In this document: positions 1,094 through 38,375 of the stretch, piece after piece | Position numbering within the stretch: the stretch's first letter is position 1 | How the letters are laid out: each line of letters opens with the position of its first letter | IMG/VR virus record: IMGVR_UViG_2541047847_000005 | From: a virus | Lineage: Duplodnaviria > Heunggongvirae > Uroviricota > Caudoviricetes | Direction: 5' to 3' (one strand) | Length of the DNA stretch: 38,375 nt | Program-made: the position numbers and the translations under genes | The notes under the pieces: generated by a model | What the model saw: the letters and a program-made list of their open reading frames with translations, nothing else | Database searches by the model: none | What the model was told of the DNA's origin: nothing

Positions 1094-1423
1094 ATGTCTC
1101 ATCGCCGCTCAACCGTTAAAGGCTCACTCTCTTTTGCCAACCCTACGGTTCGCGCCTGGTTATTCCAGATCCTTGCCGTTGTTGCTGTTGTCGGCATTAT
1201 TGGTTGGTTATTTCACAACACTGTAACGAATCTCAGTAATCGCGGCATAACATCAGGATTTGCTTTTCTTGACCGCGGGGCCGGTTTTGGCATCGTTCAG
1301 CATTTGATTGATTATCAGCAAGGCGACACTTACGGACGCGTTTTTATTGTCGGCCTGCTCAATACGCTACTGGTTTCTGCATTGTGTATTGTGTTCGCTT
1401 CTGTTTTGGGCTTCTTTATCTGA
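1094..1423 (+). pseudogene. yhdX: 5-prime fragment of amino-acid ABC transporter permease (YhdX/AapQ-like), truncated by prophage insertion
   Basis: ATG at 1094 preceded by GAGG; hydrophobic permease-like N-terminus; frame runs into TGA at 1421..1423 after only about 110 codons, and downstream sequence is phage-like. Confidence 0.6.
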
Positions 1424-1430
1424 TCAGACA

Positions 1431-1463
1431 TGAGATAAATGAAGGGGGATCCGTGAGATAAAT
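1431..1463 (+). repeat. two direct copies of TGAGATAAAT (1431..1440 and 1454..1463) at the prophage terminus; candidate transposase end-binding sites
   Basis: exact 10-bp direct repeat spaced 23 bp start to start, 10 bp inside the inferred end. Confidence 0.35.
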
Positions 1464-1616
1464 AACGAATTGGAGTGGGTTAACATGGGTTCTGGTGAAC
1501 AGAACTGAAATTCTTTTCCGCTATACGATAGATAAGTCGGGCATTGAAATCATCCTTCCTGGCAACTTAGAATCGAGTTTGCTGAAACATGACCCGCAAC
1601 AAAAAGGATGATTCCA

Positions 1617-1778
1617 ATGACTACTCAAAACAATAAGCATGATAGCCTGGATTACTCAGAAAAGCCCAAAAGCAAGCACATCGTGACGTTCGAGCGCGAT
1701 TCCGGTAGAAAAGGAGAATCGTCTTCCTCTGCCAATAAAACCACTATGCCGGCAGCCCCTGCCCCAGGGAAAAAATAA
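1617..1778 (+). CDS. hypothetical small hydrophilic protein (53 aa), doubtful
   Basis: ATG at 1617 with AAGGA 9 nt upstream; below the ORF-track cutoff; low-complexity Lys/Ser-rich product; convergent with the gene at 1782..2414. Confidence 0.15.
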   Translation: MTTQNNKHDSLDYSEKPKSKHIVTFERDSGRKGESSSSANKTTMPAAPAPGKK

Positions 1779-1781
1779 ACA

Positions 1782-2414
1782 TCATTCATCGTTCGTTGCA
1801 CGAACGCGCCTGATCTCCACTCTGGCAATCTGATCTGCTGGAATATAGGTTGCCAGAGCTCCCCAGTACTTATCAACCACGCCTTTATACTCTTCCCATT
1901 CGTTACTGCCTGAAGGGCTGCTGTGCGTGACGTAAAGAACCATATCGCCTTTATTCCCCAGGGTAAACGGACCGTTAGGCCACTCTTCAAAGTTCCCTGG
2001 CAGCCGTGACATCATACCGGAACCATCGCGAAGAATCACTCTGACCTCGGTAACGCTGAAGCCTGTTTGATCAAACATTGCCTGCCATGCTGAGCTGGTA
2101 TCGTCAGACCATGAAACATCATTATTCCACAGTAATCTGTACATCCATTTGCGACCGTACCTGCGCCACCACGCACCGCATGTAACGGCACACAGAAGTG
2201 CTGGTGGTGTTGCCAGCCAGGCATTCAGACCTGCCCACATAACAGCCTGGTAAGCCATCATTGCTGTCAGGCCAAAAATCAGCGAAGAAAAAGTCACCTC
2301 AATGGGCTTGTGGTGATCCTTCAGTCCCACATTCGCAATAAAATACCCAATATAGCCACTGGTCAGGGTCACCAGTGTTGCCCATGGCAGATTTAACAAC
2401 GAAACGTCAAACAT
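1782..2414 (-). CDS. membrane protein of unknown function (about 3 TM helices plus about 120-aa soluble C-terminal domain); terminal moron candidate
   Basis: ORF 1782..2492; preferred start is the ATG at 2414 (MFDVSLL...) with AGGGAG 5 nt upstream; hydrophobic segments LVTLTSGYIGYFIANVGL, FSSLIFGLTAMMAYQAVMWAGL, ALLCAVTCGAWW; lies after the early-operon terminator. Confidence 0.55.
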   Translation of the reverse strand: MFDVSLLNLPWATLVTLTSGYIGYFIANVGLKDHHKPIEVTFSSLIFGLTAMMAYQAVMWAGLNAWLATPPALLCAVTCGAWWRRYGRKWMYRLLWNNDVSWSDDTSSAWQAMFDQTGFSVTEVRVILRDGSGMMSRLPGNFEEWPNGPFTLGNKGDMVLYVTHSSPSGSNEWEEYKGVVDKYWGALATYIPADQIARVEIRRVRATNDE

Positions 2415-2452
2415 ATTTTCTCCCTGCATCCTGAATACTAAAGAGAGAGCAT

Positions 2453-2488
2453 AAAAAAAGCACGGTAAGGGGTCTACCGTGCTTTTAT
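2453..2488 (-). terminator. rho-independent terminator ending the early operon
   Basis: stem GCACGGTA / TACCGTGC with 7-nt loop (2460..2482); on the minus-strand transcript it is followed by TTTTTTTAT; on the plus strand by TTTTAT, so possibly bidirectional. Confidence 0.7.
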
Positions 2489-2528
2489 ACAATAAGGAGA
2501 TTTTTGAAAGGACTTTAACAAGCAGGAA

Positions 2529-2927
2529 TTATCTGGATTTGTTAACGTCTTTCGTCTCCTCTGGCAGATCTTCATCAAACAACCTGCCCTGCATCCGATC
2601 CAGTTCTTCTTTTCTGACCCGCTTAACCACGCTGTAGACCCACTGAAGCGAAACACCAAACTTGCGGGCCAGTTCGTGGTGGTTGCGTCCGTTAAACTCC
2701 CTGAAGATTTCCCGGTCGCGCTGACTGACCTTCCATACCATGCCCATCGGGAAATAAACGTTTTGCCCGCCCCAGACCTGCATCATTCGGTTCGCGACGG
2801 CCTGACCAATCTGGTCGGCAATTGCGGGCTCAATATCAATAATCTCGCGAACGGTCTCAGAGGTATGCTGTGCCAGCTCCACCAGGAGTTCCGGCCCTTT
2901 ACTTCGAAACTGATTCAGGTCGCTCAT
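2529..2927 (-). CDS. mor: Mor/C-family transcriptional activator of middle/late genes
   Basis: 132 aa; C-terminal motif FNGRNHHELARKFGVSLQWVYSVVKR matches the Mor/C family helix-turn-helix; last gene of the early operon. Confidence 0.7.
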   Translation of the reverse strand: MSDLNQFRSKGPELLVELAQHTSETVREIIDIEPAIADQIGQAVANRMMQVWGGQNVYFPMGMVWKVSQRDREIFREFNGRNHHELARKFGVSLQWVYSVVKRVRKEELDRMQGRLFDEDLPEETKDVNKSR

Positions 2928-3348
2928 GTTTTACTCCCGCAGCTCTGTGCTGCCACTTCTTCAGTTTCTCAATAACACTGCTTGCCTGTTCAGTATTGAG
3001 CCAGCGCAGGGCGCTGATGCCCGTTTCCCGCTTGATCCACCGCGCTAATGCATTTTCTGAACGGTCACGAACAATGCCGGCAGCAGCCATTTCAAGCCAT
3101 AGCGCACGAATTTTCCTGGACTGCGGATGGTTATCCAGCGGTAAACCGGAGCTGGCTTTTCTGGCTGGTTTAACGCGAAAGCCTTTCTTTTTCATGGATT
3201 CCAGCACGCAGTTTAGTTGTGTGGTATCCATTCCTTTGGTTGAGGCTTTACCGGTCAGCCCCTGTAACATCTGGCGGTAGGTGTCTTCATCCATACCCAG
3301 TTCATTACGGGCAATATGGATAAGCTGTATCAGGCGTTTTTTCTGCAT
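2899..3348 (-). CDS. gemA: GemA-like protein (Mu gp16 family)
   Basis: 149 aa; N-terminal QLIHIARNELGMDEDTYRQML motif typical of GemA; AGGAG 5 nt upstream of ATG; overlaps mor by 29 bp. Confidence 0.6.
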   Translation of the reverse strand: MQKKRLIQLIHIARNELGMDEDTYRQMLQGLTGKASTKGMDTTQLNCVLESMKKKGFRVKPARKASSGLPLDNHPQSRKIRALWLEMAAAGIVRDRSENALARWIKRETGISALRWLNTEQASSVIEKLKKWQHRAAGVKHERPESVSK

Positions 3349-3349
3349 A

Positions 3350-3556
3350 TCATCTCCTTTTTTTCAGTCTGTCGGCAACAATGTCGGTTGCAGCTGGCAG
3401 GGTGACTGGCCAGAACAACATGACGGCGGTCATGTACAGGATGTAATGCGCGGTGTCGTAGTGCCTGCCATAGCCCAGGGAACGATGAAGTCTTGCGCTG
3501 CATGATCCTGCGTACATATACCAGAAAAGAAAACAGACAATGGTTTCAGTAGTCAT
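3350..3556 (-). CDS. small membrane protein, hypothetical
   Basis: ORF 3350..3712, preferred start ATG at 3556 (MTTETIV...) with GGGGAGG upstream; hydrophobic. Confidence 0.4.
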   Translation of the reverse strand: MTTETIVCFLFWYMYAGSCSARLHRSLGYGRHYDTAHYILYMTAVMLFWPVTLPAATDIVADRLKKRR

Positions 3557-3776
3557 TCTGAATACCTCCCCATTCGATATGAATATTACGGGCAGCAATG
3601 ACAGGGTCGTTATTCCACCATGCACCTGACATGTATTTTTCAACCTGTTCGCGTCCGGCAATAACACCAATTGTGATCCCCGGCCTGACGTTCTTAAAAA
3701 AGGCGCGGGCAAAAAGGTATCTGGCAGATATTCGGCAGGCTTTTAATTTCCGGCTGTTACCTGATAGCGTAATCAT
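3546..3776 (-). CDS. hypothetical early protein (76 aa)
   Basis: ATG overlaps stop of the upstream gene (ATGA coupling at 3773..3776). Confidence 0.4.
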   Translation of the reverse strand: MITLSGNSRKLKACRISARYLFARAFFKNVRPGITIGVIAGREQVEKYMSGAWWNNDPVIAARNIHIEWGGIQNDY

Positions 3777-4456
3777 CTGGCCTCCAGTTTCTGTTGTTCC
3801 TGCCCACTGACCGGGCGGTGCAGTCTGACGTTCTGCCCTTCACGAAACCCCGCATAGCGCGAGGCGTCGCCATTGCGGCTTCTTCCCGGTTTACGCGCCC
3901 TGGTGGTTTGCGTCTGCGGGTATTTATGTTCCAGCCACTGTTGCATCAGTTCACGCTCATCATCGGTCAGGGCAAAGGACTGTATTTCACTGATAACGGC
4001 CAGTACCCAGCCTTCAGCAAACTGGTCTCCACGGCTGGTACGGGTGGCGTTTTTTATTCTTTTGTTCTGTGCGCTGATATACTGCTGACGCGCCTTTTTC
4101 AGCTGGCGGACCAGCACTTCCCAGGTGTACGCAGCCAGTGCCGCTCGTTCCCGGTTACCGTAGAACCCCACAGACGGATGCGTGCCGGGGTGAATGATGG
4201 AGTTAACACCAAATGCCTCGCGGATGATGTTCATCAGGCCCAGCATGTAGCGCGGTGGACGGAGACTGCCTGTCGGCCAGTAATGACTGATGGTTTCATC
4301 AATATCACTCATAGCAATGTCGGAATGTGTGATGCCGTGAACATCCATCAGTTTACGGGCTCGGCGCAGTGCCAGAGCGGCCTCGTGCGGGTTGCCGGAT
4401 GCGGCCAGCGCCAGCAACTTTTTCAGTTTCTCAATGTGTTTATTCTGGTCTGTCAT
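3773..4456 (-). CDS. hypothetical early protein with DUF2786-like N-terminus
   Basis: ORF 3773..4492, preferred start ATG at 4456 (MTDQNKHIEKLKKLLALAASGNPHEAALAL...) with GGAGA upstream; ATGA coupling with upstream gene. Confidence 0.5.
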   Translation of the reverse strand: MTDQNKHIEKLKKLLALAASGNPHEAALALRRARKLMDVHGITHSDIAMSDIDETISHYWPTGSLRPPRYMLGLMNIIREAFGVNSIIHPGTHPSVGFYGNRERAALAAYTWEVLVRQLKKARQQYISAQNKRIKNATRTSRGDQFAEGWVLAVISEIQSFALTDDERELMQQWLEHKYPQTQTTRARKPGRSRNGDASRYAGFREGQNVRLHRPVSGQEQQKLEAR

Positions 4457-4668
4457 TGTTCTGTATCTCCGGTATTTTTCTGCCGTTTCCATGCCCGGAC
4501 AGCGTCGGACAGCTCTTTCAGGCTGTATGCTGCTTTAAGCTTTTCCCATAACCACTGTGTTGTTATGTGCATCAGCAGGGCAGCCAGGGCTGCCCCCGCA
4601 CTGAGGCATGTCGCCAGGCCAGTAAGAATCAGTGTCCATGCGGTGATTTCCCTGAGTATGTCAGCCAT
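4453..4668 (-). CDS. small membrane protein (71 aa)
   Basis: GGGAGG upstream of ATG at 4668; one long hydrophobic segment. Confidence 0.4.
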   Translation of the reverse strand: MADILREITAWTLILTGLATCLSAGAALAALLMHITTQWLWEKLKAAYSLKELSDAVRAWKRQKNTGDTEQ

Positions 4669-4682
4669 TGAATGCCTCCCGG

Positions 4683-4979
4683 TTACTCGTTCGTGTAAAT
4701 CACGCCCAGTCGTGCAGCCAGACGTTCCAGTTTTTTCTGTTTGTGGAAGTCAATCAGCCGGTCCATCCCCTGAAGGCGCAGTTGCTCTGTCATGATTTCC
4801 ACGTCTGCCAGCTCTGCCGCGAGGTCACTTTCGCTGCCCTGTCCGTTCAGATTGCGGGCAGCACTGGCCGCCAGTTCAGCGGCCTCTTCTGTCAGTTTCA
4901 GGGCCTGTGCGTCCGGCCCGAAACGCTGCAGGGCCAGACGGTAGAGGGCGGTGCGGGTGAGTTCGGTGTTTCGTGTCAT
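4683..4979 (-). CDS. MazG-like nucleotide pyrophosphohydrolase-domain protein (tentative)
   Basis: 98 aa; EEAAEL ... AELADVEIM pattern resembles the EExxE...ExxD metal-binding motif of MazG-type NTP pyrophosphatases. Confidence 0.4.
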   Translation of the reverse strand: MTRNTELTRTALYRLALQRFGPDAQALKLTEEAAELAASAARNLNGQGSESDLAAELADVEIMTEQLRLQGMDRLIDFHKQKKLERLAARLGVIYTNE

Positions 4980-4988
4980 GCCGCGCCC

Positions 4989-5261
4989 TCAGTGCTTCCG
5001 GCTGACGGTGATGTGCAGGCCGCCTTCTGCAGTGGTTTCCATCCGGTACGGCACCTCATGCTCTGCCGTGTGGGTGAGTGTGTTCATCAGTACCTGCAGG
5101 GCAGCCTCCTTTCCGTTGGTCGCCACAATGGCCTGTGTGGCCATGCTGATTAGCGCCGTCAGGACGTGCTTCACATCGGTGAGGTCGCGGCATTCACACT
5201 CGTTGACATAGTGTTCAACAAGAGTTCGGGTGCGCTGTCGTGCTTCCTGTGGGGTAATCAT
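4989..5261 (-). CDS. hypothetical early protein (90 aa)
   Basis: AGGGAGG upstream of ATG at 5261; 4-bp overlap with next gene. Confidence 0.4.
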   Translation of the reverse strand: MITPQEARQRTRTLVEHYVNECECRDLTDVKHVLTALISMATQAIVATNGKEAALQVLMNTLTHTAEHEVPYRMETTAEGGLHITVSRKH

Positions 5262-24527: not shown

Positions 24528-24778
24528 TGAAAGAATACCGCTATTCCGGCCCGGCCAGCGGCGTCACGCTGTCGGACGGAACCGAAATCCTGCTCTGGCC
24601 GGGGAAGACGGTTTCCCTGCCGGAGGAGCATGACTACGTGAAGGTACTGGTGGCGCTGAAACATCTGACGCCGGTACCTGAAGAGACTAAACCCGCCGGC
24701 ACACCGGCTGTGCAGTCACCAAAGCGCAGAAGCAGCAGTGACAGCGAAGTGAAAACGGAGGACACCCATGGCAGCTAA
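24524..24778 (+). CDS. hypothetical small protein preceding sheath
   Basis: 84 aa; overlaps both neighbours. Confidence 0.45.
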   Translation: MMKEYRYSGPASGVTLSDGTEILLWPGKTVSLPEEHDYVKVLVALKHLTPVPEETKPAGTPAVQSPKRRSSSDSEVKTEDTHGS

Positions 24779-26195
24779 CTATCTGCATGGTCCCGAAACC
24801 ATTGAGGTGGAAAACGGTGCCCGCCCGGTTAAAACGGTGAAATCTGCCGTTATTGGCCTGATTGGTACCGCCCCGATGGGGGATGTCAATACGCTGGTAC
24901 AGTGCCTGTCTGAGAAAGACGCAGCGGCATTTGGCAGCCAGTTCACCGGCTTTACCATTCCGCAGGCGCTGGATGCGATTTATGACCATGGTGCAGGCAC
25001 CGTTCTGGTCATTAACGTCCTCGACCCGGCGAAACATAAAACGGCGATCGAGGATGAGGTGGTTACCTTTGACAAATCGACAGGGCAGGCCAGACTGGCG
25101 CATCCGGTTGTCGCTAATGTGGTGGTGAAAAACAGTGAAGGCAGCACCTCCCACACGGCGAACACGGACTACCGTGTTGATGCGCAGGCGGGTGTGCTCA
25201 CGAACCTGGGCAAGGCTATTGAGGCCGGTGGCAGCGTGAAGGTGAGCTATGAGTACGCGGACCCGTCGAAGGTGACTGCGGCGGACATCATCGGCGGGGT
25301 GAACAGCGCCGGAAACCGAACCGGCATGAAGCTGCTTAACGACAGCTTCAACCTGTACGGCTATTTCGCCAAAATTCTGATTGCGCCGGTGTTCTGCACC
25401 CAGAAGAGTGTCGCAGTTGAGCTTATCGCCATGGCAGAGAAGCTGGGCGCGGTAACCTACATTGATGCGCCTGTCGGTACCACCTTTGCACAGGCTCTGG
25501 CAGGTCGTGGCCCGGAAGGCACCATCAACTTCAATACCAGCTCCGACCGCGTCCGTCTGTGCTACCCGCATGTGAAGGTATACGATCCGGTGACAAACAC
25601 GGAGCGTCTGGAGCCGCTCAGCCAGCGTGCAGCAGGTCTGCGTGCCCGTATCGACCTTGAGAAGGGCTACTGGTGGTCATCCTCCAATCAGGAGATTCTG
25701 GGGATCACCGGCGTGGAGCGCCAGCTGTCCGCGATGATTGATGACCCGCAGAGTGAGGTGAACCTGCTTAACGAACAGGGGATCACCACGGTATTCAGCA
25801 GTTACGGCAGCGGCCTTCGTCTGTGGGGTAACCGGACGGCAGCATGGCCAACGGTCACCCATATGCGTAACTTTGAGAACGTTCGCCGCACCGGTGATGT
25901 GATCAACGAGTCCATTCGTTATTTCAGCCAGCAGTACATCGACATGCCGATTACTCAGGCGCTGATTGATGCACTGACGGAGTCGGTCAACGCCTACGGT
26001 CGCAAAATGACTGGTGATGGTGCGGTACTGGGCTTCCGTTGCTGGTTTGATCCGGCCCGCAATCCGGAGACGGAGCTGGCCGCCGGGCACCTGTTGCTGA
26101 GCTACAAATATACGCCACCACCGCCGCTGGAGCGACTGACGTTTGAGACTGAGATCACCTCGGAATACCTGTTAACCCTGAAAGGGGGCAACTGA
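24768..26195 (+). CDS. contractile tail sheath protein
   Basis: 475 aa; followed by the tube gene with ATGA overlap; order typical of Mu L / P2 FI. Confidence 0.8.
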   Translation: MAANYLHGPETIEVENGARPVKTVKSAVIGLIGTAPMGDVNTLVQCLSEKDAAAFGSQFTGFTIPQALDAIYDHGAGTVLVINVLDPAKHKTAIEDEVVTFDKSTGQARLAHPVVANVVVKNSEGSTSHTANTDYRVDAQAGVLTNLGKAIEAGGSVKVSYEYADPSKVTAADIIGGVNSAGNRTGMKLLNDSFNLYGYFAKILIAPVFCTQKSVAVELIAMAEKLGAVTYIDAPVGTTFAQALAGRGPEGTINFNTSSDRVRLCYPHVKVYDPVTNTERLEPLSQRAAGLRARIDLEKGYWWSSSNQEILGITGVERQLSAMIDDPQSEVNLLNEQGITTVFSSYGSGLRLWGNRTAAWPTVTHMRNFENVRRTGDVINESIRYFSQQYIDMPITQALIDALTESVNAYGRKMTGDGAVLGFRCWFDPARNPETELAAGHLLLSYKYTPPPPLERLTFETEITSEYLLTLKGGN

Positions 26196-26716
26196 TGTCA
26201 AAGATTGAGATAAACCGCATCACGAATGCCAACATCTATCTGGATGGTACTAACCTGCTGGGACGGGCTGAGGAAGTCAAACTCCCCGATGTCTCCATGA
26301 TTATGCAGGAACACAAGGCGCTGGGGATGGTGGGTAAGGTGGAACTCCCGGCTGGTTTTGACAAACTGGAAGGCGAAATCAAATGGAACAGCTTTTACCG
26401 CGATGCGATGCTGTCTGCCGCGAACCCGTACAGGTCGCTGGCACTGCAGTGTCGTTCCAGCGTCCAGCGCTACAGCTCGCAGGGGCTGATTGACGAAATC
26501 CCGCTGGTCACCTTCCTGACGATTATGTTCAAGAAGAACCCGCTGGGGACGTTCAAACAGCACGAGAACGCCGAGTTCTCCAGTAGCTTCACCTGCACGT
26601 ATATCAGACAGGTACTGGATGGTGAAGAGCTGCTGCAACTGGACTATCTGGCCAACATCTTCCGGGTCGGCGGTGTTGATCAACTGACTGACTACCGTAT
26701 CAATATCGGGGGCTGA
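26195..26716 (+). CDS. tail tube protein
   Basis: 173 aa immediately after sheath; order typical of Mu M / P2 FII. Confidence 0.8.
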   Translation: MSKIEINRITNANIYLDGTNLLGRAEEVKLPDVSMIMQEHKALGMVGKVELPAGFDKLEGEIKWNSFYRDAMLSAANPYRSLALQCRSSVQRYSSQGLIDEIPLVTFLTIMFKKNPLGTFKQHENAEFSSSFTCTYIRQVLDGEELLQLDYLANIFRVGGVDQLTDYRINIGG

Positions 26717-27097: not shown

Positions 27098-27433
27098 ATG
27101 TCACAGACCCCATCCGATACTTTTAAATTGTCTTATCCCTTCACCACTGCTGCAGGCACCAGAATTGAGCAGGTTGAACTGAAACGCCTGACGGTAAAAG
27201 ACCTGAAGCAGGTGCGCAAAATCAGCAAAAACCCGGCAGACTGGGACGAACCGCTGATTGCCCGCAGTACTGGTCTTCTCCCGGAAGATCTCGACAATAT
27301 GGACCTGGCTGATTACCTGCAGTTACAGAAACGATTTCAGCTCATCACGGGGATGGGTGAGAGCGACAAAGGCGCTGACGCAGGCGCAGGGGCTGCTGGC
27401 GAGATGGTTCCGGTTTCAGCCGGGGGAGATTGA
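27098..27433 (+). CDS. tail assembly chaperone (P2 gpE-like)
   Basis: 111 aa; N-terminal motif LSYPFTTAAGTRIEQVELKRLTVKDLKQV; directly upstream of the tape measure gene. Confidence 0.65.
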   Translation: MSQTPSDTFKLSYPFTTAAGTRIEQVELKRLTVKDLKQVRKISKNPADWDEPLIARSTGLLPEDLDNMDLADYLQLQKRFQLITGMGESDKGADAGAGAAGEMVPVSAGGD

Positions 27434-27515
27434 TGCCCTCGATACTGACGATCTGGAGATGTGGCTGGAGCAGGCTGAAGAGCAAATAAAAAGCGAGTAC
27501 GGCGACAAATCATAA
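27258..27515 (+). CDS. overlapping ORF, candidate frameshift extension of the tail assembly chaperone
   Basis: second frame open across the 3-prime end of the chaperone gene and ending just before the tape measure gene, the conserved position of chaperone frameshift products; slippery site not identified. Confidence 0.35.
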   Translation: MPAVLVFSRKISTIWTWLITCSYRNDFSSSRGWVRATKALTQAQGLLARWFRFQPGEIDALDTDDLEMWLEQAEEQIKSEYGDKS

Positions 27516-27590: not shown

Positions 27591-30500
27591 ATGTCGGGAC
27601 AGTTTTCAGTCGGCGTTGTTATCGGCGGGATGATTGGCAGCACATTCCGTTCTGCAATGAGCGGTACCCGCCGTGCGCTTGATTCCCTGAGCGATACCTC
27701 ACGCCGCCTGCAGGAACGTCAGAACGCTTTAACCCGTGCAACAGAACGTTATGGTCAACTGGGTTCTTCCCGGATGCAGCATCTCAACAGCGAGCTGCTG
27801 CGGGTAAGCCGCACCATGGAGCAAATTGAGCGCCAGCAGCGCCGTCTGTCAGCGGCATCCGCTACCAGTGATGCGCTGAAAGCTAACCGCATGGCGCTGT
27901 ATGGTCAGGGGATTGAAGCGTATGGCATGGCTCAGACTGTTTATCATACGGTTTCCCCTGCCGTTCAGCAGTCCATGTTTTTTCAGGACAAAATGATTGA
28001 TATGTCGATCACCGCAAAATATGACAATAAAACGCGGGATGCACTTGCCGGACAGATAAAAGGCTGGGCGCTTAAATACAATCAGTATCAGGATGAGCTG
28101 CAGGAGGCGGTGGGTTCACTCATCAGCGACAATATTGATAATGTGTCAGATATCGGTTTTCTGATGCCGGATATTGCCCGCGCGGCAACGGCAACACGCA
28201 CGTCTGCTCAGGACTGGGCAAAAGTGGCCGCAGTCTGGCAAAACTCCCTGAAAGGTGCGGCCAGAGATTTTGGTGCCGTTCAGAATATTATGGCTTATGC
28301 CGGTGACCAGGGGTCATTTGAAATCCCGGATCAGGTCAAGTGGATGCAGTCCCTGGCCCCAATGATGGCGGGTATTGCCAGTGGAAAAGAGGCTGTTGCT
28401 GAAATCGGGGCCAGTCTCCAGATAGCAAAAATCGGTGCAGGTTCCACCGACGAAGCAGCCAATAATTTTAAAAACTTTCTTACCAAAATTTTTGCCCGCG
28501 ATACTCAGAAACAGTTTGCTGATCTGGGTATTGATTTGCAGGGATCTATTGCGAGTTATAAAGCTGCGGGGATCTCTCCGATTGAAGGGATGTTGAGTGT
28601 TATAGAACGTTACCTCAATGCCAAAAGCCCCGAAGCGCTGGCCGGCTTCAAATCCGCCATGAAAATAAAGAATGATACGGCAAGAGATGAGGCACTTCAG
28701 GCTCTGGCGAAAAACTTTGGTCTGGGTGATATGTTCGCGGATATGCAGGTCATGGCATTTATCCGCCCGATGCTGGCCAACATGGACAGATATCGCGAGA
28801 TCCGCGCCGGTGCTCTCAGGGCTGCGGATAACGATTTGCTTGCCAGTGCTTATGATCAGCGGCTGAAATCTCCCCTTGAAGCCACTAAAACACTTATGGT
28901 CAGCAGTCGCGATCTGGCAATTACGCTGGGCGATCAATTAGCTCCATCTTTTATTTCTTTGACTCAGGAACTGCTTCCACTCATTCAGGGGGCAAAACAC
29001 TGGGTAGCGACTCACCCGCAATTTGTCAGTGGGGCTTTTAAGCTCATCAGTGCGCTCCTTGCGATTAAGATAGCGACTGTTGGTCTCAAACTGGGGCTGA
29101 ATCTCCTTATTTCCCCCTTTGTGAACGTCTGGAAAACTACTGTTTTACTCCGGACCAACTGGCATCGACTGGCTACCGCACTCGGAGAAGGTGGCAAATT
29201 ACGCTGGCTTGTCACTGGATTCAGCCGACTGACCAGCGGAGGACTGAAACTCAGCAAAGTTCTGGCGGGCAGCCTCGTTCGCGGTTTTATGAGCGCTGCA
29301 CGTGCCGTTCTCTGGATTGGGCGAGCGCTGATGATGAATCCCATCGGTCTCGTTATCACCGCTGTCGCGGCAGCAGCTTACCTTATCTACCGCAACTGGG
29401 GGGCTGTCAGTGGTTGGTTTAAACAGCGCTGGGCTGACATTCAGGAAGCCTTTAACGGCGGCATTGTGGGAATTGGTAAGTTGCTGATTAACTGGTCGCC
29501 GGCAGGCCTGCTCTATAAAGCCTTTGCGGCTGCGCTGAAATATTTCGGCGTTGCTCTGCCGGCAAAGTTCACCGACTTCGGTGGCCATCTTATCGACGGT
29601 CTGATTAACGGTATCAAAAACAAATGGGGGTCGCTCAAATCCAGTGTAACCGGAATGGGTGACAGCATCAGTAGCTGGTTTAAACAGTGCTGGGCTGACA
29701 TTCAGGAAGCCTTTAACGGCGGCATTGTGGGAATTGGTAAGTTGCTGATTAACTGGTCGCCGGCAGGCCTGCTCTATAAAGCCTTTGCGGCTGCGCTGAA
29801 ATATTTCGGCGTTACTCTGCCGGCAAAGTTCACCGACTTCGGTGGCCATCTTATCGACGGTCTGATTAACGGTATCAAAAACAAATGGGGGGCGCTCAAA
29901 TCCAGTGTAACCGGAATGGGTGACAGCATCAGTAGCTGGTTTAAACAGTGCTGGGCTGACATTCAGGAAGCCTTTAACGGCGGTATCGCGGGAACTGGTA
30001 AGCTGCTGATTAACTGGTCGCCGGCAGGTCTGCTCTATAAAGCCTTTGCAGCTGCGCTGAAATATCTTGGTGTTGATCTGCCGGCAAAGTTTACCGACTT
30101 CGGTGGCCATCTTGTCGATGGTCTGATTAACGGTATCAAAAACAAATGGGAGTCGCTCAAATCCAGTGTAACCGGAATGGGTGACAGCATCAGTGGCTGG
30201 TTCAGCGAAAAGCTGGGCATTCATTCGCCGAGCCGCGTGTTTATGGGCTTTGGTGACAATATCGCGCAGGGGGCCGCCATTGGCCTGCAGCGGACCACTC
30301 CGCTTGTAGCTCTGGCCGGGCAGCGAATGGCCAGTGAACTGCTCCCCAGAATGCCCGTGAGCATTCAGGGGCCAGAAATACGGGATAACACTTCAGGTGT
30401 TCGCTTCAGTATGCCGTTGCCCGATATCAATGGGTTTATGTCGTCTGCTAAAAATGCGATCGGAGCCGTAATCAATAGTTTGTCTTCCATGCCCGCTATT

Positions 30501-30803
30501 CCGCTCTCCACCCGGGCATCGATTTTACCAGGGCAACGTCTGGCAAATGAGATGACACCGGATGTTCCCCGTATCCCCTCGCCTGAAATCCTGGCTGCCG
30601 GATATTCAGGCCGTGGTGCAGCTGCAACCGGCGGTGGAACGTCTGGTGGTATCCAGGTCAGCTTTAATCCTCAGTTTTTCCTCAATGGCAGGGAAACCAC
30701 AGCGCCTGCAGGACTGACTGGTGCCCTGAATATGAGTCTGCATGAGCTGGAAAAAATGCTGGAGCGTCTGCTGGCTCAGAAACAACGTAAGGAGTACCGC
30801 TGA
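27591..30803 (+). CDS. tail tape measure protein with internal tandem triplication
   Basis: 1070 aa; GGAGG upstream; long helical protein after the chaperone genes; contains 3 near-identical 87-aa repeats. Confidence 0.9.
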   Translation: MSGQFSVGVVIGGMIGSTFRSAMSGTRRALDSLSDTSRRLQERQNALTRATERYGQLGSSRMQHLNSELLRVSRTMEQIERQQRRLSAASATSDALKANRMALYGQGIEAYGMAQTVYHTVSPAVQQSMFFQDKMIDMSITAKYDNKTRDALAGQIKGWALKYNQYQDELQEAVGSLISDNIDNVSDIGFLMPDIARAATATRTSAQDWAKVAAVWQNSLKGAARDFGAVQNIMAYAGDQGSFEIPDQVKWMQSLAPMMAGIASGKEAVAEIGASLQIAKIGAGSTDEAANNFKNFLTKIFARDTQKQFADLGIDLQGSIASYKAAGISPIEGMLSVIERYLNAKSPEALAGFKSAMKIKNDTARDEALQALAKNFGLGDMFADMQVMAFIRPMLANMDRYREIRAGALRAADNDLLASAYDQRLKSPLEATKTLMVSSRDLAITLGDQLAPSFISLTQELLPLIQGAKHWVATHPQFVSGAFKLISALLAIKIATVGLKLGLNLLISPFVNVWKTTVLLRTNWHRLATALGEGGKLRWLVTGFSRLTSGGLKLSKVLAGSLVRGFMSAARAVLWIGRALMMNPIGLVITAVAAAAYLIYRNWGAVSGWFKQRWADIQEAFNGGIVGIGKLLINWSPAGLLYKAFAAALKYFGVALPAKFTDFGGHLIDGLINGIKNKWGSLKSSVTGMGDSISSWFKQCWADIQEAFNGGIVGIGKLLINWSPAGLLYKAFAAALKYFGVTLPAKFTDFGGHLIDGLINGIKNKWGALKSSVTGMGDSISSWFKQCWADIQEAFNGGIAGTGKLLINWSPAGLLYKAFAAALKYLGVDLPAKFTDFGGHLVDGLINGIKNKWESLKSSVTGMGDSISGWFSEKLGIHSPSRVFMGFGDNIAQGAAIGLQRTTPLVALAGQRMASELLPRMPVSIQGPEIRDNTSGVRFSMPLPDINGFMSSAKNAIGAVINSLSSMPAIPLSTRASILPGQRLANEMTPDVPRIPSPEILAAGYSGRGAAATGGGTSGGIQVSFNPQFFLNGRETTAPAGLTGALNMSLHELEKMLERLLAQKQRKEYR
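29415..30197 (+). repeat. 3 tandem copies of a 261-bp in-frame repeat inside the tape measure gene
   Basis: repeat units start at 29415, 29676 and 29937 (TGGTTTAAACAG...); each encodes WFKQ.WADIQEAFNGGI...KNKW..LKSSVTGMGDSIS with few substitutions. Confidence 0.9.
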
Positions 30804-31687
30804 TGTTTGCCGTACTGGGTGATATTGAGTTTGAGCTGATTACCTACTGGGACGGCTTCGAGGCCACGTTCGGCGTCGATTATGCGGAGCATGCCCGCAT
30901 CGGGGGTAAGCCTGGCCTGCAGTTCGTCGGCGACAGGCTGGACGAAATCCAGATAAGTCTGGTCTTCCATCAGCATTATTGTGTACCCGATGTGGAGCTG
31001 GCGAGACTGCGAACAACCATGAAAGCCCATCAGGCACTGGCGCTGGTCTTCGGCAACGGTGACTATCGCGGCTGGTTCGTGATTACCGATGTGACTGCAA
31101 CCAGCGAGCAGACTGACAGTACCGGCAACGTGCTGGCTGTCAGTGCCACCGTGTCTCTCCGGGAATACACCGGTGACCCGAAAAATCCTCTGCAACCACC
31201 GGCAATACGCACGAAGCTCCCGGGTGTCGGGGCGGTCTCCGGTGCCATTCCTTCACCTTCCGGGGTGGCGCAGTTCATCCGCAACGGCGTCAACTATGCG
31301 AAACAGGCGCAGTCTGTACTCCAGACCACTATCAGCGCCGTTCGGGTGACACAGAAAATGAAGGATAACCCCGTTGTCGCACTGACCCGTGTGCCGGGGC
31401 TGATGAGCGGACTGGGTAATATCTCCGGGGCTCTGGGGAAAAGTGTTCCGGCGTTTAACGCACTCTCTGAATCCATGCCCGATGCCATCAGTCTGGCCAG
31501 AACAGCCAGCGAAGCAGCCACGTATGTACAGCAGGCACAGTCTGCGCTGAGTGGTGTGGACAAAAGAAATATTGCAGGTGCTCTGGATACCGTTTCCGGG
31601 CAGCTTAACGCCGTCGGAACAGCATTCAACCGCATGTCTCCGGGATTAAGTGCAATGGCCGCCAGAATACTGACGAGGAGTGTGTGA
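30803..31687 (+). CDS. tail protein (P2 gpU-like N-terminal domain; Mu N position)
   Basis: 294 aa; ATGA overlap with tape measure gene; module order. Confidence 0.55.
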   Translation: MFAVLGDIEFELITYWDGFEATFGVDYAEHARIGGKPGLQFVGDRLDEIQISLVFHQHYCVPDVELARLRTTMKAHQALALVFGNGDYRGWFVITDVTATSEQTDSTGNVLAVSATVSLREYTGDPKNPLQPPAIRTKLPGVGAVSGAIPSPSGVAQFIRNGVNYAKQAQSVLQTTISAVRVTQKMKDNPVVALTRVPGLMSGLGNISGALGKSVPAFNALSESMPDAISLARTASEAATYVQQAQSALSGVDKRNIAGALDTVSGQLNAVGTAFNRMSPGLSAMAARILTRSV

Positions 31688-31899
31688 TGTTTCTTGAACA
31701 TGTTACCCGTGACGGAGAGCGCTGGGATTCGCTGGCATGGCAGTACTACGGTGACCCGCTGGGCTATCCCCGGATTATTGCCGCCAATCCGCACGTGGCC
31801 ATCACGCCGGTGCTGCCCTCCGGGCTGTTGTTACTGATCCCGGTGATTGAGGCTGAAGAAGCCCGTACAGAAGAGGATATTGCCCCATGGCTGAGATAA
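31687..31899 (+). CDS. tail protein X (LysM-like)
   Basis: ORF 31684..31899, ATG at 31687; motif WDSLAWQYYGDP...IIAANPHVA...VLPSGLLLLIP resembles P2 gpX family. Confidence 0.6.
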   Translation: MFLEHVTRDGERWDSLAWQYYGDPLGYPRIIAANPHVAITPVLPSGLLLLIPVIEAEEARTEEDIAPWLR

Positions 31900-33041
31900 A
31901 CAGCACTGCGCAAGTCACATCAGCGTTAACCGGCGTCAGCGATGTGCTGACACCGGTGTTCACTCTGTGGTATCTGCAGAAAAACATCACCTCTGATATC
32001 GCGCCTTATGTCACCCGTGTGACCTGGAGCGATAACATCAAAAATGAGTCCGATACCATTGAGGTGGAGCTGGACGACACCGATGGCCGCTGGCTGGATA
32101 AGTGGTATCCGGGCAAGGGTGACACGCTGACGCTGAAAATGGGCTATCAGGGCGAGAAGCTGCTGTCCTGCGGTACGTTCTCTATAGACGAGATCGAAGT
32201 GAGTTCGCCCGCTTCCGTTGTTTCTATCCGTGGGGTGGCCACCTCGGTTAACAGTGCCCTGCGGACTAAAACCAGTCGTGGTTTTGAGAACACCACGCTG
32301 GCAGCTGTTGCGGGGCGGATTGCCAGAAAGCACCGGCTGAAACTGGTGGGCAGCATTGAGTCCATCAGAATCGACCGGGTGACCCAGTATGCTGAAACCG
32401 ACGTGGGTTTTCTGCGCCGGCTGGCCAGCGAGTATGGTTATGCAGTGAAAGTGGTCAGTGACCAGCTGATTTTTTCTCATCTGGCCACACTGCGCAGTCA
32501 GGAGCCGGTCAGGCAGTTAAAACCGCAGGATGTGGCCCGCTTTTCCCTGCGTGACACCATCAACCGGGTCTATAAATCTGCAAAGGTAAAACACCAGAAA
32601 AGCAGCAGTAAAAAACTGATCGTCTACGAAGCTGATGGTGGTACCCGTGAAAGCGACAAAAAGCTCAAAGGTGGTAAGGTTACCAGCGCTGACTCACTTA
32701 AAGTTAACAGCCGCGTCAGCGACCCGGACAGTGCCCGGATTAAAGCGGATTCAGCACTGGCCAGACATAACGAATACCAGCAGAACGGCTCCCTGACGCT
32801 GACGGGAACACCTCAACTGACAGCAGGCAACAAAATTGAACTGGTGGGTTTTGGGCAGTTATCCGGGCCATGGCTCATAACCACTGCCCGCCATGCGTTT
32901 GACCGTAACAGCGGCTACACCACAGAGCTGGAAGTGGCACGGGGGCCAGTCACAAGAGGGAAAAAACAAAAAACTCAGAAACTCACGGTTTATCACCCGG
33001 ATGGCAGTACATCGACGGTGATTAAGGAGAAGAAAAAATGA
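31887..33041 (+). CDS. tail protein, late control D family (Mu P-like)
   Basis: 384 aa after the X-like gene; module order. Confidence 0.7.
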   Translation: MAEINSTAQVTSALTGVSDVLTPVFTLWYLQKNITSDIAPYVTRVTWSDNIKNESDTIEVELDDTDGRWLDKWYPGKGDTLTLKMGYQGEKLLSCGTFSIDEIEVSSPASVVSIRGVATSVNSALRTKTSRGFENTTLAAVAGRIARKHRLKLVGSIESIRIDRVTQYAETDVGFLRRLASEYGYAVKVVSDQLIFSHLATLRSQEPVRQLKPQDVARFSLRDTINRVYKSAKVKHQKSSSKKLIVYEADGGTRESDKKLKGGKVTSADSLKVNSRVSDPDSARIKADSALARHNEYQQNGSLTLTGTPQLTAGNKIELVGFGQLSGPWLITTARHAFDRNSGYTTELEVARGPVTRGKKQKTQKLTVYHPDGSTSTVIKEKKK

Positions 33042-35130: not shown

Positions 35131-35701
35131 GCCATTACAACTCCCGCCACCGCTTGAGGGTGATATCAGTCTCAGGACGCTGGGAAGACTGGCAGGACGG
35201 CTGGATAACATCGACCTGAGCGTACTGATGGTCTTTCTCGTCGATATCGTCGACAGTTCCGCGCTGCCATGGCTGGGCGAGCAGTTCTCACTGTCTGGCG
35301 ATGGCTGGGAGCTGGCGGAATCGGACGATGTTCGCCGCATGCTTATAAAAGCAGCCATCGAACTGCACCGGTATAAAGGGACGCCGTGGTCAATCCGGGA
35401 AGTTATCCGCCGTTTTGGCTTTGGTGAAGTGGATCTGATTGAAGGCACAGGTCGTCTCAGTTACGACGGCAATCGCAGCTATAACGGACTGTTTGTTCAT
35501 GGAGATGCAGCCGCCTGGGCAGTTTATCGCGTTATTCTGAAACAGCCCATTACTAACGATCAGGCCGCGATGCTGCGTCAGACGCTGGCTGCATTTGCAC
35601 CGGCCCGCTGCCATCTGGCCAGCCTGGAGTATCAGTCTGTGGCCATTCGCTATAACAATACTGCCATCCATGATGGCAGTTATAACCACGGGAGCAGTTG
35701 A
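35123..35701 (+). CDS. tail protein I (P2 gpI-like)
   Basis: 192 aa overlapping J and the fibre gene. Confidence 0.7.
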   Translation: MTEPLQLPPPLEGDISLRTLGRLAGRLDNIDLSVLMVFLVDIVDSSALPWLGEQFSLSGDGWELAESDDVRRMLIKAAIELHRYKGTPWSIREVIRRFGFGEVDLIEGTGRLSYDGNRSYNGLFVHGDAAAWAVYRVILKQPITNDQAAMLRQTLAAFAPARCHLASLEYQSVAIRYNNTAIHDGSYNHGSS

Positions 35702-35703
35702 TT

Positions 35704-37299
35704 ATGGGAAACCTGAATGAAACAGAAAAGTGGGAAGAAAATATCTATCAACTGGAGACATCAGATCCGGTTCTGGGTGGTGCAGACGGGATATCAAATC
35801 GAGCCCCCCGGCAACTGGCAAACAGGACGAAATGGCTGAAGAAGAAAACGGAGGAAGCCGCACAGTCACTGGCTGAACACGTACGTTCCCGTAACCACCC
35901 GGACGCGACACTGACAGCTAAGGGGTTCACCCAACTGAGCAGTGCCACCAACAGCACCTCTGAAACGCTGGCCGCCACACCAAAAGCGGTCAAGGCTGCA
36001 TACGACCTGGCAGCCGGCAAGGCGCCTGCCAGCCACACTCACCCGTGGAGTCAGATAACGGGAGTGCCTGCGGCTTCACTGACGGCAAAAGGCACCGTAC
36101 AACTGAGCAGCGCCACGGACAGTCAATCAGAAACTGAGGCTGCCACGCCGAAGGCTGTGAAAATCGCGTATGATCTGGCCCGGGGAAAATACACAGCCCA
36201 GGATGCAACAACGACCCGTAAAGGGATCGTACAACTGAGCAGTGCCATCAACAACACGTCTGAAACGCTGGCCGCTACACCGAAAGCTGTCAAGGCTGCA
36301 TATGACCTGGCTAACGGGAAGTACACAGCCCAGGATGCAACCACGACACAAAAAGGGATAGTTCAGCTCAGTAGCGACACCAACAGCACTTCTGAAACAT
36401 TAGCTGCAACTCCAAAAGCGGTTAAAGCTGCATACGATCTAGCAGCCGGAAAGGCACCATCCAGTCATACACATCCCTGGAATCAGATCACTGGTGTGCC
36501 AACAGCTTCATTGACAGCGAAAGGCATCACTCAGCTCAGTAGTGCCACTAACAGCACGTCTGAAGTGCTGGCCGCTACACCGAAAGCTGTCAAGGCTGCA
36601 TACGATCTGGCAAACGGAAAACAACCGGCAGATGCCACGCTCACTGCTCTGGCAGGACTTGCCACTGCAGCAGATCGGGTGCCTTATTTTACCGGAGCAG
36701 ACCGCGCAGCGCTGGCAACCCTTACAGCTATTGGTCGCGCTATTATCGCTAAGGGCAGTATAAAAGATGTCCTCAATTACCTTGGTTTAGGAGAAGGCTC
36801 GGCGCTACCCGTTGGTGTGCCTGTTCCATGGCCCACCGCCACGCCGCCAGCAGGCTGGTTGAAGTGCGACGGGCGCGCCTTTACAAAAGAACAATATCCT
36901 GTTCTGGCCAGAGCCTACCCGACCCTCCGTCTTCCCGATTTACGCGGTGAGTTTATCCGTGGATGGGACGACGGGCGCAAAGTTGATACAGGACGTAAGT
37001 TGCTGTCCGCACAAGGGGCAACGCTGTTAAGAACAGCAATGCTGGATTATTATAACCAGGACACTACGGGAACCTCGGGGATAGTCGGCATGGGATTCAA
37101 CAATGAAGATTCCATTACAGACCTTCGTGAGGGCAGCTTTAAAATGCCGGACGGGACAACATTCAGCGATCCTGTCGTGGCAATGTCAGACAATGGTATG
37201 CAGGCTACTATTCTGACCTCTATCAGAAGCGGGTATGCGAAGGGTATCACTGTCAGACCCCGTAGCATTGCACTTAATTACATTGTGAGGGCAGTTTAA
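35704..37299 (+). CDS. tail fibre protein with 5 tandem fibre repeats and collar-like C-terminal domain
   Basis: ORF 35698..37299 (TTG at 35698, ATG at 35704 with GGGAG upstream); repeats of the form KG.TQLSSATNSTSETLAATPKAVKAAYDLA.GK; C-terminal PDLRGEFIRGWDDGR motif. Confidence 0.85.
   Translation: MGNLNETEKWEENIYQLETSDPVLGGADGISNRAPRQLANRTKWLKKKTEEAAQSLAEHVRSRNHPDATLTAKGFTQLSSATNSTSETLAATPKAVKAAYDLAAGKAPASHTHPWSQITGVPAASLTAKGTVQLSSATDSQSETEAATPKAVKIAYDLARGKYTAQDATTTRKGIVQLSSAINNTSETLAATPKAVKAAYDLANGKYTAQDATTTQKGIVQLSSDTNSTSETLAATPKAVKAAYDLAAGKAPSSHTHPWNQITGVPTASLTAKGITQLSSATNSTSEVLAATPKAVKAAYDLANGKQPADATLTALAGLATAADRVPYFTGADRAALATLTAIGRAIIAKGSIKDVLNYLGLGEGSALPVGVPVPWPTATPPAGWLKCDGRAFTKEQYPVLARAYPTLRLPDLRGEFIRGWDDGRKVDTGRKLLSAQGATLLRTAMLDYYNQDTTGTSGIVGMGFNNEDSITDLREGSFKMPDGTTFSDPVVAMSDNGMQATILTSIRSGYAKGITVRPRSIALNYIVRAV
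35908..36620 (+). repeat. 5 tandem imperfect repeats (about 35-45 codons each) inside the tail fibre gene
   Basis: recurring TPKAVKAAYDLA and QLSSATNSTSE peptide motifs; approximate boundaries. Confidence 0.6.
36889..36980 (+). repeat. left copy of 92-bp near-perfect inverted repeat inside fibre gene
   Basis: reverse complement of 38200..38291 with 1 mismatch; flanked by lower-identity homology from about 36811. Confidence 0.8.
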
Positions 37300-37913
37300 T
37301 GAGTAACACTGCAGTTCTGGATGAAAACGGTATCGCCACTGTAGCGGGCGATATCACTGTATATCACTATGACGAGGAAACCCGGGAATACACCTCATCC
37401 TCTGTGGAGTATCTCGCCCTTGGGGTGGGTACTCCGGCACATTCGTGCGCCGATGCACCGCCGGAGGCAATTTCGGGTTACGTGGTTTGCCGGACTGCCA
37501 CGCTGAACGGGTGGGAGCATGTGCCTGATCACCGCGGCGAGACGGTATACAGCACGGAGAACGGTAACCCCGTTCTGATTACCCAACCGGGTGATTACCC
37601 GGCGGACACCACCACAAAACAGCCAGCCACGCCATGGGATACCTGGAACGGTGAGGCGTGGGTAACCGATACTGAACGGCAGCGAACCGCAGAGCTGGAG
37701 ACTGCCAGACTGCAACGCCAGAAACGGGTGGATCAGGCGATGAAGTCCATCGACCTCATCAACCTCAAACTGCGGGCAGGTCGCAGTCTGAAACCAGAAG
37801 AAACGGCAAAACTGAACGCCGTGCTGGATTATATCGACGAGCTGAACGCACTGGATATCAGCACGGCACCTGAAATCAGCTGGCCGGAAGCGCCACTGGC
37901 ACTTGCCAGTTGA
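37299..37913 (+). CDS. tail fibre assembly protein (Tfa)
   Basis: 204 aa; TAATG overlap with fibre gene; C-terminal APEISWPEAP motif typical of Tfa chaperones. Confidence 0.75.
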   Translation: MSNTAVLDENGIATVAGDITVYHYDEETREYTSSSVEYLALGVGTPAHSCADAPPEAISGYVVCRTATLNGWEHVPDHRGETVYSTENGNPVLITQPGDYPADTTTKQPATPWDTWNGEAWVTDTERQRTAELETARLQRQKRVDQAMKSIDLINLKLRAGRSLKPEETAKLNAVLDYIDELNALDISTAPEISWPEAPLALAS

Positions 37914-37919
37914 ACGGTA

Positions 37920-38375
37920 TCACGCCGCCCTCACGATATAGTTAAACGCGATATTGCGGGGGCGGGTTATGTTAAAGAATGCTCCGTTTAATTCGGCTTT
38001 TGCGCGACTGTTTGTTCCACCCAGCATTGCGTACCACAAATAATCGCTACGGTAATTCCCCGCAAACACCTTATCGCCGCCATAGTCAATATTATTTCCG
38101 TTACTCATGTACGAGATATCAAGCGCAGAATCGTTATCGTCATGACCGCCGACCAGTGTACCTTTCTGCCATGAAAGCAACTTACGCCCCTCGTCAATCT
38201 TGCGCCCGTCGTCCCATCCACGGATAAACTCACCGCGTAAATCGGGAAGACGGAGGGTCGGGTAGACTCTGGCCAGAACAGGATATTGTTCTTTGGTGAA
38301 CGTAGCTCCGTTGCACTGTAACCAGCCTGCTGGCGGTGTGGCGGTGGGCCATGGAACCGGTACACCAACAGGCAA
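37920..38375 (-). CDS. alternative tail fibre C-terminal module on opposite strand (5-prime end beyond window)
   Basis: translation shares about 70 aa (PVGVPVPWPTATPPAGWL...PDLRGEFIRGWDDGRK) with the plus-strand fibre and ends with the same NYIVRA tail; ORF is open to the window edge. Confidence 0.6.
   Translation of the reverse strand: MPVGVPVPWPTATPPAGWLQCNGATFTKEQYPVLARVYPTLRLPDLRGEFIRGWDDGRKIDEGRKLLSWQKGTLVGGHDDNDSALDISYMSNGNNIDYGGDKVFAGNYRSDYLWYAMLGGTNSRAKAELNGAFFNITRPRNIAFNYIVRAA
38200..38291 (-). repeat. right copy of 92-bp near-perfect inverted repeat
   Basis: reverse complement of 36889..36980. Confidence 0.8.

Follow-up and report, generated by a model that had tools for sequence, protein, structure and literature searches.

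We analysed a 38,375-nucleotide stretch of viral DNA (hereafter the window; IMG/VR record IMGVR_UViG_2541047847_000005, Caudoviricetes) in which the tape-measure protein gene of an Escherichia coli prophage carries three head-to-tail, in-frame copies of a 261-bp unit. Closely similar E. coli prophages carry one, two or three such units. The best explanation, and one that we consider probable, is a history of unequal recombination between units that generated one-, two- and three-copy alleles, with an expected consequence for tail length through the function of the protein as a molecular ruler.

Three in-frame units in a tape-measure gene

Tandem Repeats Finder returned a single array at 29407..30202 (period 261, 3.0 copies, 95% matches, 0 indels, score 1445). 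An ungapped repeat finder placed its copies at the unit boundaries given in Table 1, with 98% identity to copy 1 for the second and 93% for the third. The frame is kept because 261 equals 3 x 87, and translation gives three successive units of 87 aa. Units 1 and 2 differ at 5 nt, units 1 and 3 at 18 nt, and units 2 and 3 at 17 nt, and the 261 bases on each side of the array do not align to the unit except for a 13-nt border motif. An array of such length and identity cannot have arisen by chance. A first-pass annotation of the window had described three in-frame, head-to-tail 261-bp units in a tape-measure gene, as both repeat finders and the translation confirm; the positions that it gave, 29415-30197, mark the same 783-bp array with a phase slightly shifted relative to 29407-30189. 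Its description of the copies as nearly identical fits units 1 and 2 and does not fit unit 3, which is about 7% diverged. A 341-aa antisense open reading frame (window 29199-30224, - strand) covers the array and is almost certainly no gene; the repeat merely propagates a stop-free antisense frame three times.

The gene is the sole long open reading frame of its region. Its 1070-aa product matches PF10145 over residues 159-340 (E 2.1e-20; 73.9 bits, cut-off 33.2), TIGR01760 (56.2 bits, cut-off 28.8) and PHROG tape-measure families. It lies in a tail module with the order sheath (24768-26195), tube (26195-26716), chaperone, tape-measure protein, gpU (30803-31687), gpX, gpD (31887-33041) and baseplate genes. 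The two domain models and the position in the tail module uphold the earlier identification of the repeat-bearing gene as a tape-measure gene. Elsewhere in the window there are genes for an rve-type transposase, a MuB-like ATPase and a Mu-type portal, and the closest phage record is Escherichia phage PhiKM (PQ738613), classed in Bcepmuvirus. These three genes, the PhiKM match and the tail genes identify the element as a transposable, Mu-like prophage whose contractile tail is of the P2 type. Its tape-measure protein resembles the P2 gpT/Mu gp42-type proteins of BcepMu-like phages; its gene has 97.7% nucleotide identity to that of PhiKM, in which the genes are in the same order. A sequencing gap interrupts the PhiKM record precisely at the array and makes the copy number unreadable there.

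Such failures at the repeat are common. Besides the PhiKM gap (L001 3414-3740), many database proteins of 844-979 aa are labelled partial and end in the repeat, and one IMG/VR scaffold (L038, IMGVR_UViG_2740892433_000005) is joined by N (position 3200) inside the array and shows 3.4 + 4.0 units. This scaffold hints at an allele with four or more units, although its count cannot be trusted. The window itself derives from an E. coli draft assembly (GCA_000459535.1), and its third unit might in principle be a short-read assembly error in a gene that truly holds two copies. Against this, intact 3213-bp three-copy genes are found in many complete chromosomes, the window units differ at diagnostic sites that make them distinguishable and consistently placed, and a 1070-aa protein recorded for the source contig is identical. 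We attach next to no probability to an artefact of this kind.

Chimeric units and copy number among E. coli prophages

The variable-site table resolves two unit types, A (unit 1) and B (unit 3), which are 18 of 261 nt apart. Unit 2 carries B states at unit nt 6, 8 and 21, A states from nt 56 onward and 2 private substitutions. This pattern is the expected product of an unequal crossover in which unit 2 (B) paired with unit 1 (A) of two-copy A|B parents, and nt 21 and 56 would bracket the breakpoint. Both types are common to all multi-copy alleles and not private to the window genome. Window unit 3 and the final unit of further E. coli alleles (L002, L003, L006) are only 2-3 nt apart, and the first unit of L006 differs from window unit 1 at 2 sites.

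The B-to-A switch in the middle unit falls at three places: between nt 21 and 56 in the window, near nt 74-77 in L006 and between nt 8 and 21 in L031. Seventeen three-copy proteins show 14 distinct mosaic patterns, in which the middle unit always combines a B-type 5' end with a predominantly A-type body. Because the switch points differ and the mosaic patterns are this numerous, expansion would have occurred more than once, or gene conversion would have followed. The one-copy E. coli alleles L003 and L004 are likewise A/B chimeras, with two different switch points. Since their single units are chimeric, these alleles are likely to be deletion derivatives and not ancestral forms. The single unit of L003 equals unit 1 of L002 to nt 21 and unit 2 of L002 from nt 101, and the exchange falls within a stretch identical in both. 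We rejected triplication in a single event, given the chimeric unit 2 and the A/B dichotomy shared among alleles. The first-pass annotation had proposed a recent triplication; what survives of this is a recent unequal crossover that would have added the chimeric B/A middle unit, whereas the change was not a single event and the A/B duplication is older, as the divergence of the two types indicates.

Among 5426 complete E. coli genomes, 636 contain a match to the gene, records labelled ST131 included. In a systematic sample of 60 of these, two units (2952 bp) were found in 38 genomes, three units (3213 bp) in 14 and one unit (2691 bp) in 2; the remaining genomes hold a truncated two-unit gene (1/60), a more distant one-unit gene of 2454 bp (3/60) or partial matches (2/60). 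In 32 of the 60, the search statistics are identical and indicate a single two-copy allele. Proteins of the corresponding lengths (1070, 983 and 896 aa) are found repeatedly in the protein collection, and the three-copy reading frames are intact in the window, L006 and L031. NZ_CP103710 is among the three-copy records. Thus, length variants with one, two and three units do exist among near-identical prophages, as had been predicted, and they include one contraction at a fixed site. The comparison with related prophages that the annotation had recommended yielded a clear size polymorphism, and not the same three fixed repeats everywhere. Its view of the repeats as unstable is apt at the scale of populations, where the locus is polymorphic, and goes too far if taken to mean hypervariability, given the predominance of one two-copy allele.

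The contraction concerns strain AVS0947 (NZ_CP124460). Upstream of the array, its one-unit allele (L003) matches the two-unit allele of strain 4/1-1 (L002, NZ_CP023844) across all 4815 nt, and the 3615 nt downstream hold a single difference. The prophages of AVS0947, 4/1-1 and the two-copy strain 81009 (NZ_CP021179) all adjoin aroA-serC-ycaP. Because a transposable phage uses many sites and the insertion site is nevertheless shared, the AVS0947 and 4/1-1 lysogens would descend from a common lysogen, and one unit was probably lost inside a resident prophage lineage.

Strains ST131, FDAARGOS_1303 and GN04979 share, at 100% identity, a 12.4-kb stretch that holds the three-copy gene, and the host DNA at its end differs in each. 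This suggests that the three-copy phage moved between sites and strains after it gained the third unit and, because it apparently did so, that it makes working particles. No other genome among the best matches listed shares the tape-measure-to-dsrB junction of the ST131 three-copy prophage. In the window, the junction between host DNA and the left prophage end lies at 1420/1421 and interrupts yhdX (amino-acid ABC transporter permease). None of the complete E. coli genomes searched shares this insertion, and no same-site sibling was found among them; an unshared insertion site is the expectation for a transposable phage. Strain N61, the nearest relative for the left arm of the window, is not a direct parent: its prophage, which has two copies, is 100% identical over window 1420-5000, but its tail module has diverged (67 differences in the 5' part of the gene).

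Gains and losses of units also bring to mind a contingency locus, at which frequent recombination between units would produce mixed tail lengths within one lysate or culture, to be selected, for example, for envelope or capsule thickness. Several independent expansions and contractions would agree with this, as would the contraction inside a resident prophage lineage and the repeated amplification of the module in other lineages (see below). On the other hand, the prevalence of one two-copy allele and the finding of only one near-identical one-copy derivative make the changes look rare, and the array has no dedicated recombinase or site. We therefore regard a contingency locus as very unlikely.

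The direction of change can be read from more distant relatives. When one genome was scanned per species, the relatives from some 20 further genera (including Intestinirhabdus, Trabulsiella, Mixta, Pantoea, Erwinia, Brenneria and Xenorhabdus) all have one unit, and the IMG/VR loci comprise 59 with one unit, 12 with two and 2 with three. A distant one-unit E. coli allele (L005) shows 27 differences from type A and 27 from type B. Because the other genera are all one-unit and L005 is equidistant from the two types, the ancestor of this clade probably had one unit, and the A|B duplication would be peculiar to the E. coli lineage. An ancient fixed repeat was rejected, as every other genus found has a single unit. 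The motif [VI][SG]xWF bounds the unit on both sides in all one-unit relatives, including those of Xenorhabdus and Brenneria and those with as little as 34-41% overall identity. Among the E. coli genes, the border motif takes the form of a 13-nt direct repeat, TCAGTGGYTGGTT, and we infer that such microhomology would have seeded the first duplication.

Several of the relatives have peculiarities of their own. The match in Erwinia tracheiphila (L025, 1501-5177) spans 3677 nt yet holds only one unit, and this gene is probably interrupted by an insertion. Premature stops occur in several other relatives (L011, L016, L022). Small low-coverage contigs of Arthrobacter sp. GMC3 and Y81 (L008, L026, L028; also L042) are 96-99% identical to the E. 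coli phage gene. These matches are most likely contamination, and one of the two Arthrobacter assemblies is a species representative.

The observed anatomy of the array, its polymorphism, the chimeric units and the single-copy outgroups are compatible with the following course of events. An ancestral gene would have held one 87-aa module with an S-G-W-F motif on both sides, forming the 13-nt direct microhomology. An illegitimate event between these borders may then have produced a two-copy gene in the E. coli lineage, the copies of which would have diverged into types A and B (~7%). Subsequently, three-copy alleles (A, B/A chimera, B), of which the window carries one, could have arisen repeatedly as the 261-bp units underwent homologous unequal crossing-over or gene conversion, and the same exchanges could have generated the one-copy alleles (A/B chimera). 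With the tape-measure protein as the ruler for polymerisation of tube and sheath, each extra module would finally add about 13 nm, giving three discrete tail-length classes.

Predicted tail length and the 87-residue module

The tape-measure protein sets how long the phage tail is, and nearly all of the evidence for this comes from engineered mutants of a few model phages. In-frame changes to the ruler were reportedly made in the laboratory in lambda gpH by Katsura & Hendrix in 1984, in T4 gp29 by Abuladze et al. in 1994 and in the TP901-1 tape-measure protein by Pedersen et al. in 2000. The alleles described here are like those mutants in that the length of the ruler changes in frame and a proportional change in tail length is expected; the inclusion of T4 in the engineered set extends the rule to a contractile tail. 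Unlike those mutants, the present variants are natural, would have arisen via recombination of 261-bp repeats and coexist in E. coli populations.

The usual figure for an extended helix is about 0.15 nm per residue. From this we infer that one 87-residue unit corresponds to roughly 13 nm of tail, or some three tube rings, and we predict tails of about 134, 147 and 160 nm for the one-, two- and three-unit proteins. The tail of the window phage should be about 13 nm longer than the two-unit norm, and about 26 nm (two units) longer only when compared with the one-copy state. The two extra units and the lengthening by about 25 nm of which the first-pass annotation spoke are thus counted correctly from the one-copy state, and relative to the commonest, two-unit form there is only one extra unit.

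The copy-number changes could also be real and length-neutral, if the extra modules fold up, form loops or sit in the baseplate or hub and their number drifts in a permissive segment. The unit is rich in glycine and proline (16 of its 87 residues) and its predicted helices, of low confidence, are broken; tolerance of in-frame duplications of 101, 188 and 235 aa in the same region (see below) fits a permissive segment as well. However, every tape-measure deletion or duplication tested in the sources that we consulted changes tail length in proportion. In TP901-1, removal or addition of ~29% of the residues of the engineered protein changed tail length by ~30% (Mahony et al., 2016; PMC5099701), and the passages of the survey by Moreno-Rodriguez et al. 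(2026; PMC13585406) that cite lambda and T4 describe a proportional change upon deletion or duplication in those phages. The retention of diverged arrays of two to four modules in many lineages further suggests that added length is kept. We consider length neutrality unlikely.

Several points nevertheless weigh against a history of unequal recombination with an effect on tail length. The predicted effect rests on the established ruler model. An AlphaFold2 model of the full protein is mostly helical by DSSP, but with a mean pLDDT of 32 and a pTM of 0.21 (15-sequence alignment) it is unreliable, so that a helical, extended unit is assumed; the glycine and proline content could also bring the length per residue below that of a continuous helix. 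Sequence alone does not tell unequal crossing-over from gene conversion, and copy-number events may have been fewer, with part of the mosaic diversity produced by conversion afterwards. The A/B divergence could stem from recombination of two diverged phage alleles rather than having accumulated in place. The census was drawn at even steps down the ranking of the 636 matching genomes and is not a full count. No PDB entry is related to the protein at E <= 0.01, and the KS10 paper holds no usable tail-length calibration.

We searched window 29406-29666 as protein against 1.84 billion representative proteins (E <= 0.001). The 87-residue unit matches 557 representative clusters, and it has no match to any Pfam or NCBIfam model, relaxed thresholds included. 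Diverged tandem copies occur in many distant tape-measure proteins, with four in a row in P0122 and three in P0123. A profile built from the matches and applied to the 91 full-length representatives among the best 150 found one copy in 66 proteins, two in 21, three in 3 and four in 1, with 76 residues as the commonest spacing. The hydrophobic segment 5' of the array, LLMNPIGL...AAYLIY, is also kept in distant tape-measure relatives. The closing motif GWFK..LGIHSPSRVF is itself repeated in P0132 and P0134. Close to their C-terminus, P0132 and P0141 carry a distinct long array of proline-rich or Q-rich repeats.

In close relatives, the same region has been duplicated independently, in tandem and in frame, in other registers. 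P0001 contains a 101-aa duplication (residues ~533-734), L062 (2013-3170) one of 188 aa/564 nt with copies 97.5% identical, and L105 (2019-3300) one of 235 aa/705 nt with copies ~93% identical. The latter two, which were detected by an offset-identity script as their periods of 564 and 705 nt exceed the Tandem Repeats Finder limit of 500, hold the hydrophobic segment and the whole 87-aa unit; the duplication in P0001 covers the hydrophobic segment and, of the unit, no more than the initial ~28 residues. Amplification of this ruler region would thus seem to be a recurrent theme, of which the window may represent the youngest stage. A bolder idea is that the 87-residue module is the natural tail-length unit of a large undescribed class of P2/Mu-type tape-measure proteins, with heritable classes ~13 nm apart under selection that might, for instance, fit tails to the envelope or capsule of various E. 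coli hosts; we offer this as a speculation that is more likely to be wrong than right by a wide measure.

Natural variation in tape-measure units has been described before. Belcaid, Bergeron & Poisson (2011; PMC3271669) reported natural 11-residue units with histories of duplication and loss. As in that work, the units described here are in frame and head to tail, their number varies between related phages, and their history can be read from nucleotide differences between units. In contrast, the present unit comprises 87 residues, neither 11 nor a multiple of 11, it occurs in 1-3 copies in a Mu-like genome with a P2-type contractile tail, and its chimeric units reveal crossover points directly. 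The survey by Moreno-Rodriguez et al. (2026) found that tandem repeats and homorepeats tune the length of the tape-measure protein and so of the tail, and that phages with contractile tails depend chiefly on homorepeats, unlike the case here, which is a long tandem repeat in a contractile-tailed phage. Our literature searches returned nothing on phage PhiKM and no paper joining 'tape measure' with 'unequal crossing'. Length variation of tape-measure proteins via internal tandem units is already known from the engineered mutants and the 11-residue units, and it would not surprise a specialist. New here are the 87-residue unit, its occurrence with a contractile tail, a natural near-isogenic one-, two- and three-copy series in a common E. 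coli prophage, and the readable crossover points.

Neighbouring features, annotation and implications

The features of the array, its gene and the adjacent chaperone region are compiled in Table 1.

Table 1. Features of the tape-measure gene and its surroundings (window coordinates).
Feature	Position	Strand	Basis or remark
Tape-measure protein gene, intact open reading frame, 1070 aa	27591..30803	+	PF10145, TIGR01760, PHROG tape-measure families, gene order
Repeat unit 1, type A	29407..29667	+	Residues 606-692; first-unit border variant, G at unit nt 6
Repeat unit 2, B/A chimera	29668..29928	+	Residues 693-779; variable-site tables
Repeat unit 3, type B	29929..30189	+	Residues 780-866; 18 nt from unit 1
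Border microhomology TCAGTGGTTGGTT, encodes S-G-W-F	29407..29419	+	Array start; flank sequence
Border microhomology, second copy TCAGTGGCTGGTT	30190..30202	+	Directly 3' of unit 3; Tandem Repeats Finder array runs 13 nt beyond three full units
Conserved post-array motif SGWFSEKLGIHSPSRVF	30192..30242	+	Also closes the module array in distant tape-measure proteins
Hydrophobic segment, residues 572-600	29304..29390	+	Immediately 5' of array; Kyte-Doolittle scan
Second hydrophobic segment, residues 477-508	29019-29114	+	Kyte-Doolittle scan
Tail assembly chaperone, gpE-like	27098-27433	+	PF10109, E 3.5e-22
Other-frame open reading frame overlapping the chaperone	27258-27515	+	Last 46 codons (27375-27515) weakly like P2 GpE/E' frameshift extension

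Overlapping chaperone reading frames upstream of the tape-measure gene are the usual arrangement for a programmed frameshift. In the window, the match of the last 46 codons of the second frame to PF06528 is weak (E 0.006, under the Pfam cut-off), and at the corresponding position of L004 RefSeq has a 'GpE family phage tail protein'.

Outside the array, the tape-measure gene is a mosaic relative to L012-L029. Residues 30-115, ~494-725 (the hydrophobic segments plus the unit) and the last ~85 residues are 70-90% identical to these relatives, and the central residues 117-465, including the PF10145 domain, are only 20-35% identical. The G+C content at 28-30 kb dips to 0.51, versus 0.55-0.59 nearby. 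Further downstream, a tail-fibre gene (35698-37299) and its assembly gene (37299-37913) are followed by an inverted open reading frame with a tail-collar domain (37920-38375, - strand). In relatives a recombinase gene comes next, and RefSeq calls the fibre fragments there partial. Window 35698-38375 looks like an invertible host-range region of the Mu G-segment type.

The repeat also affects how these prophages are recorded. RefSeq (PGAP) splits the intact three-copy reading frame into two pseudogenes labelled 'incomplete; partial in the middle of a contig' in L006 (3001-6213) and L031 (2626-5838). Both frames translate to 1070 aa without a stop, and at least two complete genomes are affected. 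The split is probably a side effect of alignment to two-copy reference proteins. Because the repeat breaks short-read assemblies and RefSeq splits intact three-copy genes, calls of prophage intactness for this family can be wrong.

Near-isogenic one-, two- and three-unit alleles of one temperate, contractile-tailed phage make a direct test of the ruler rule possible, and the same alleles permit a test of whether tail length affects host range or infectivity. If the 87-residue module were indeed a natural unit of tail length, the E. coli one-, two- and three-copy series would be a ready natural allelic series with which to relate tail length to infection by a contractile-tailed phage.

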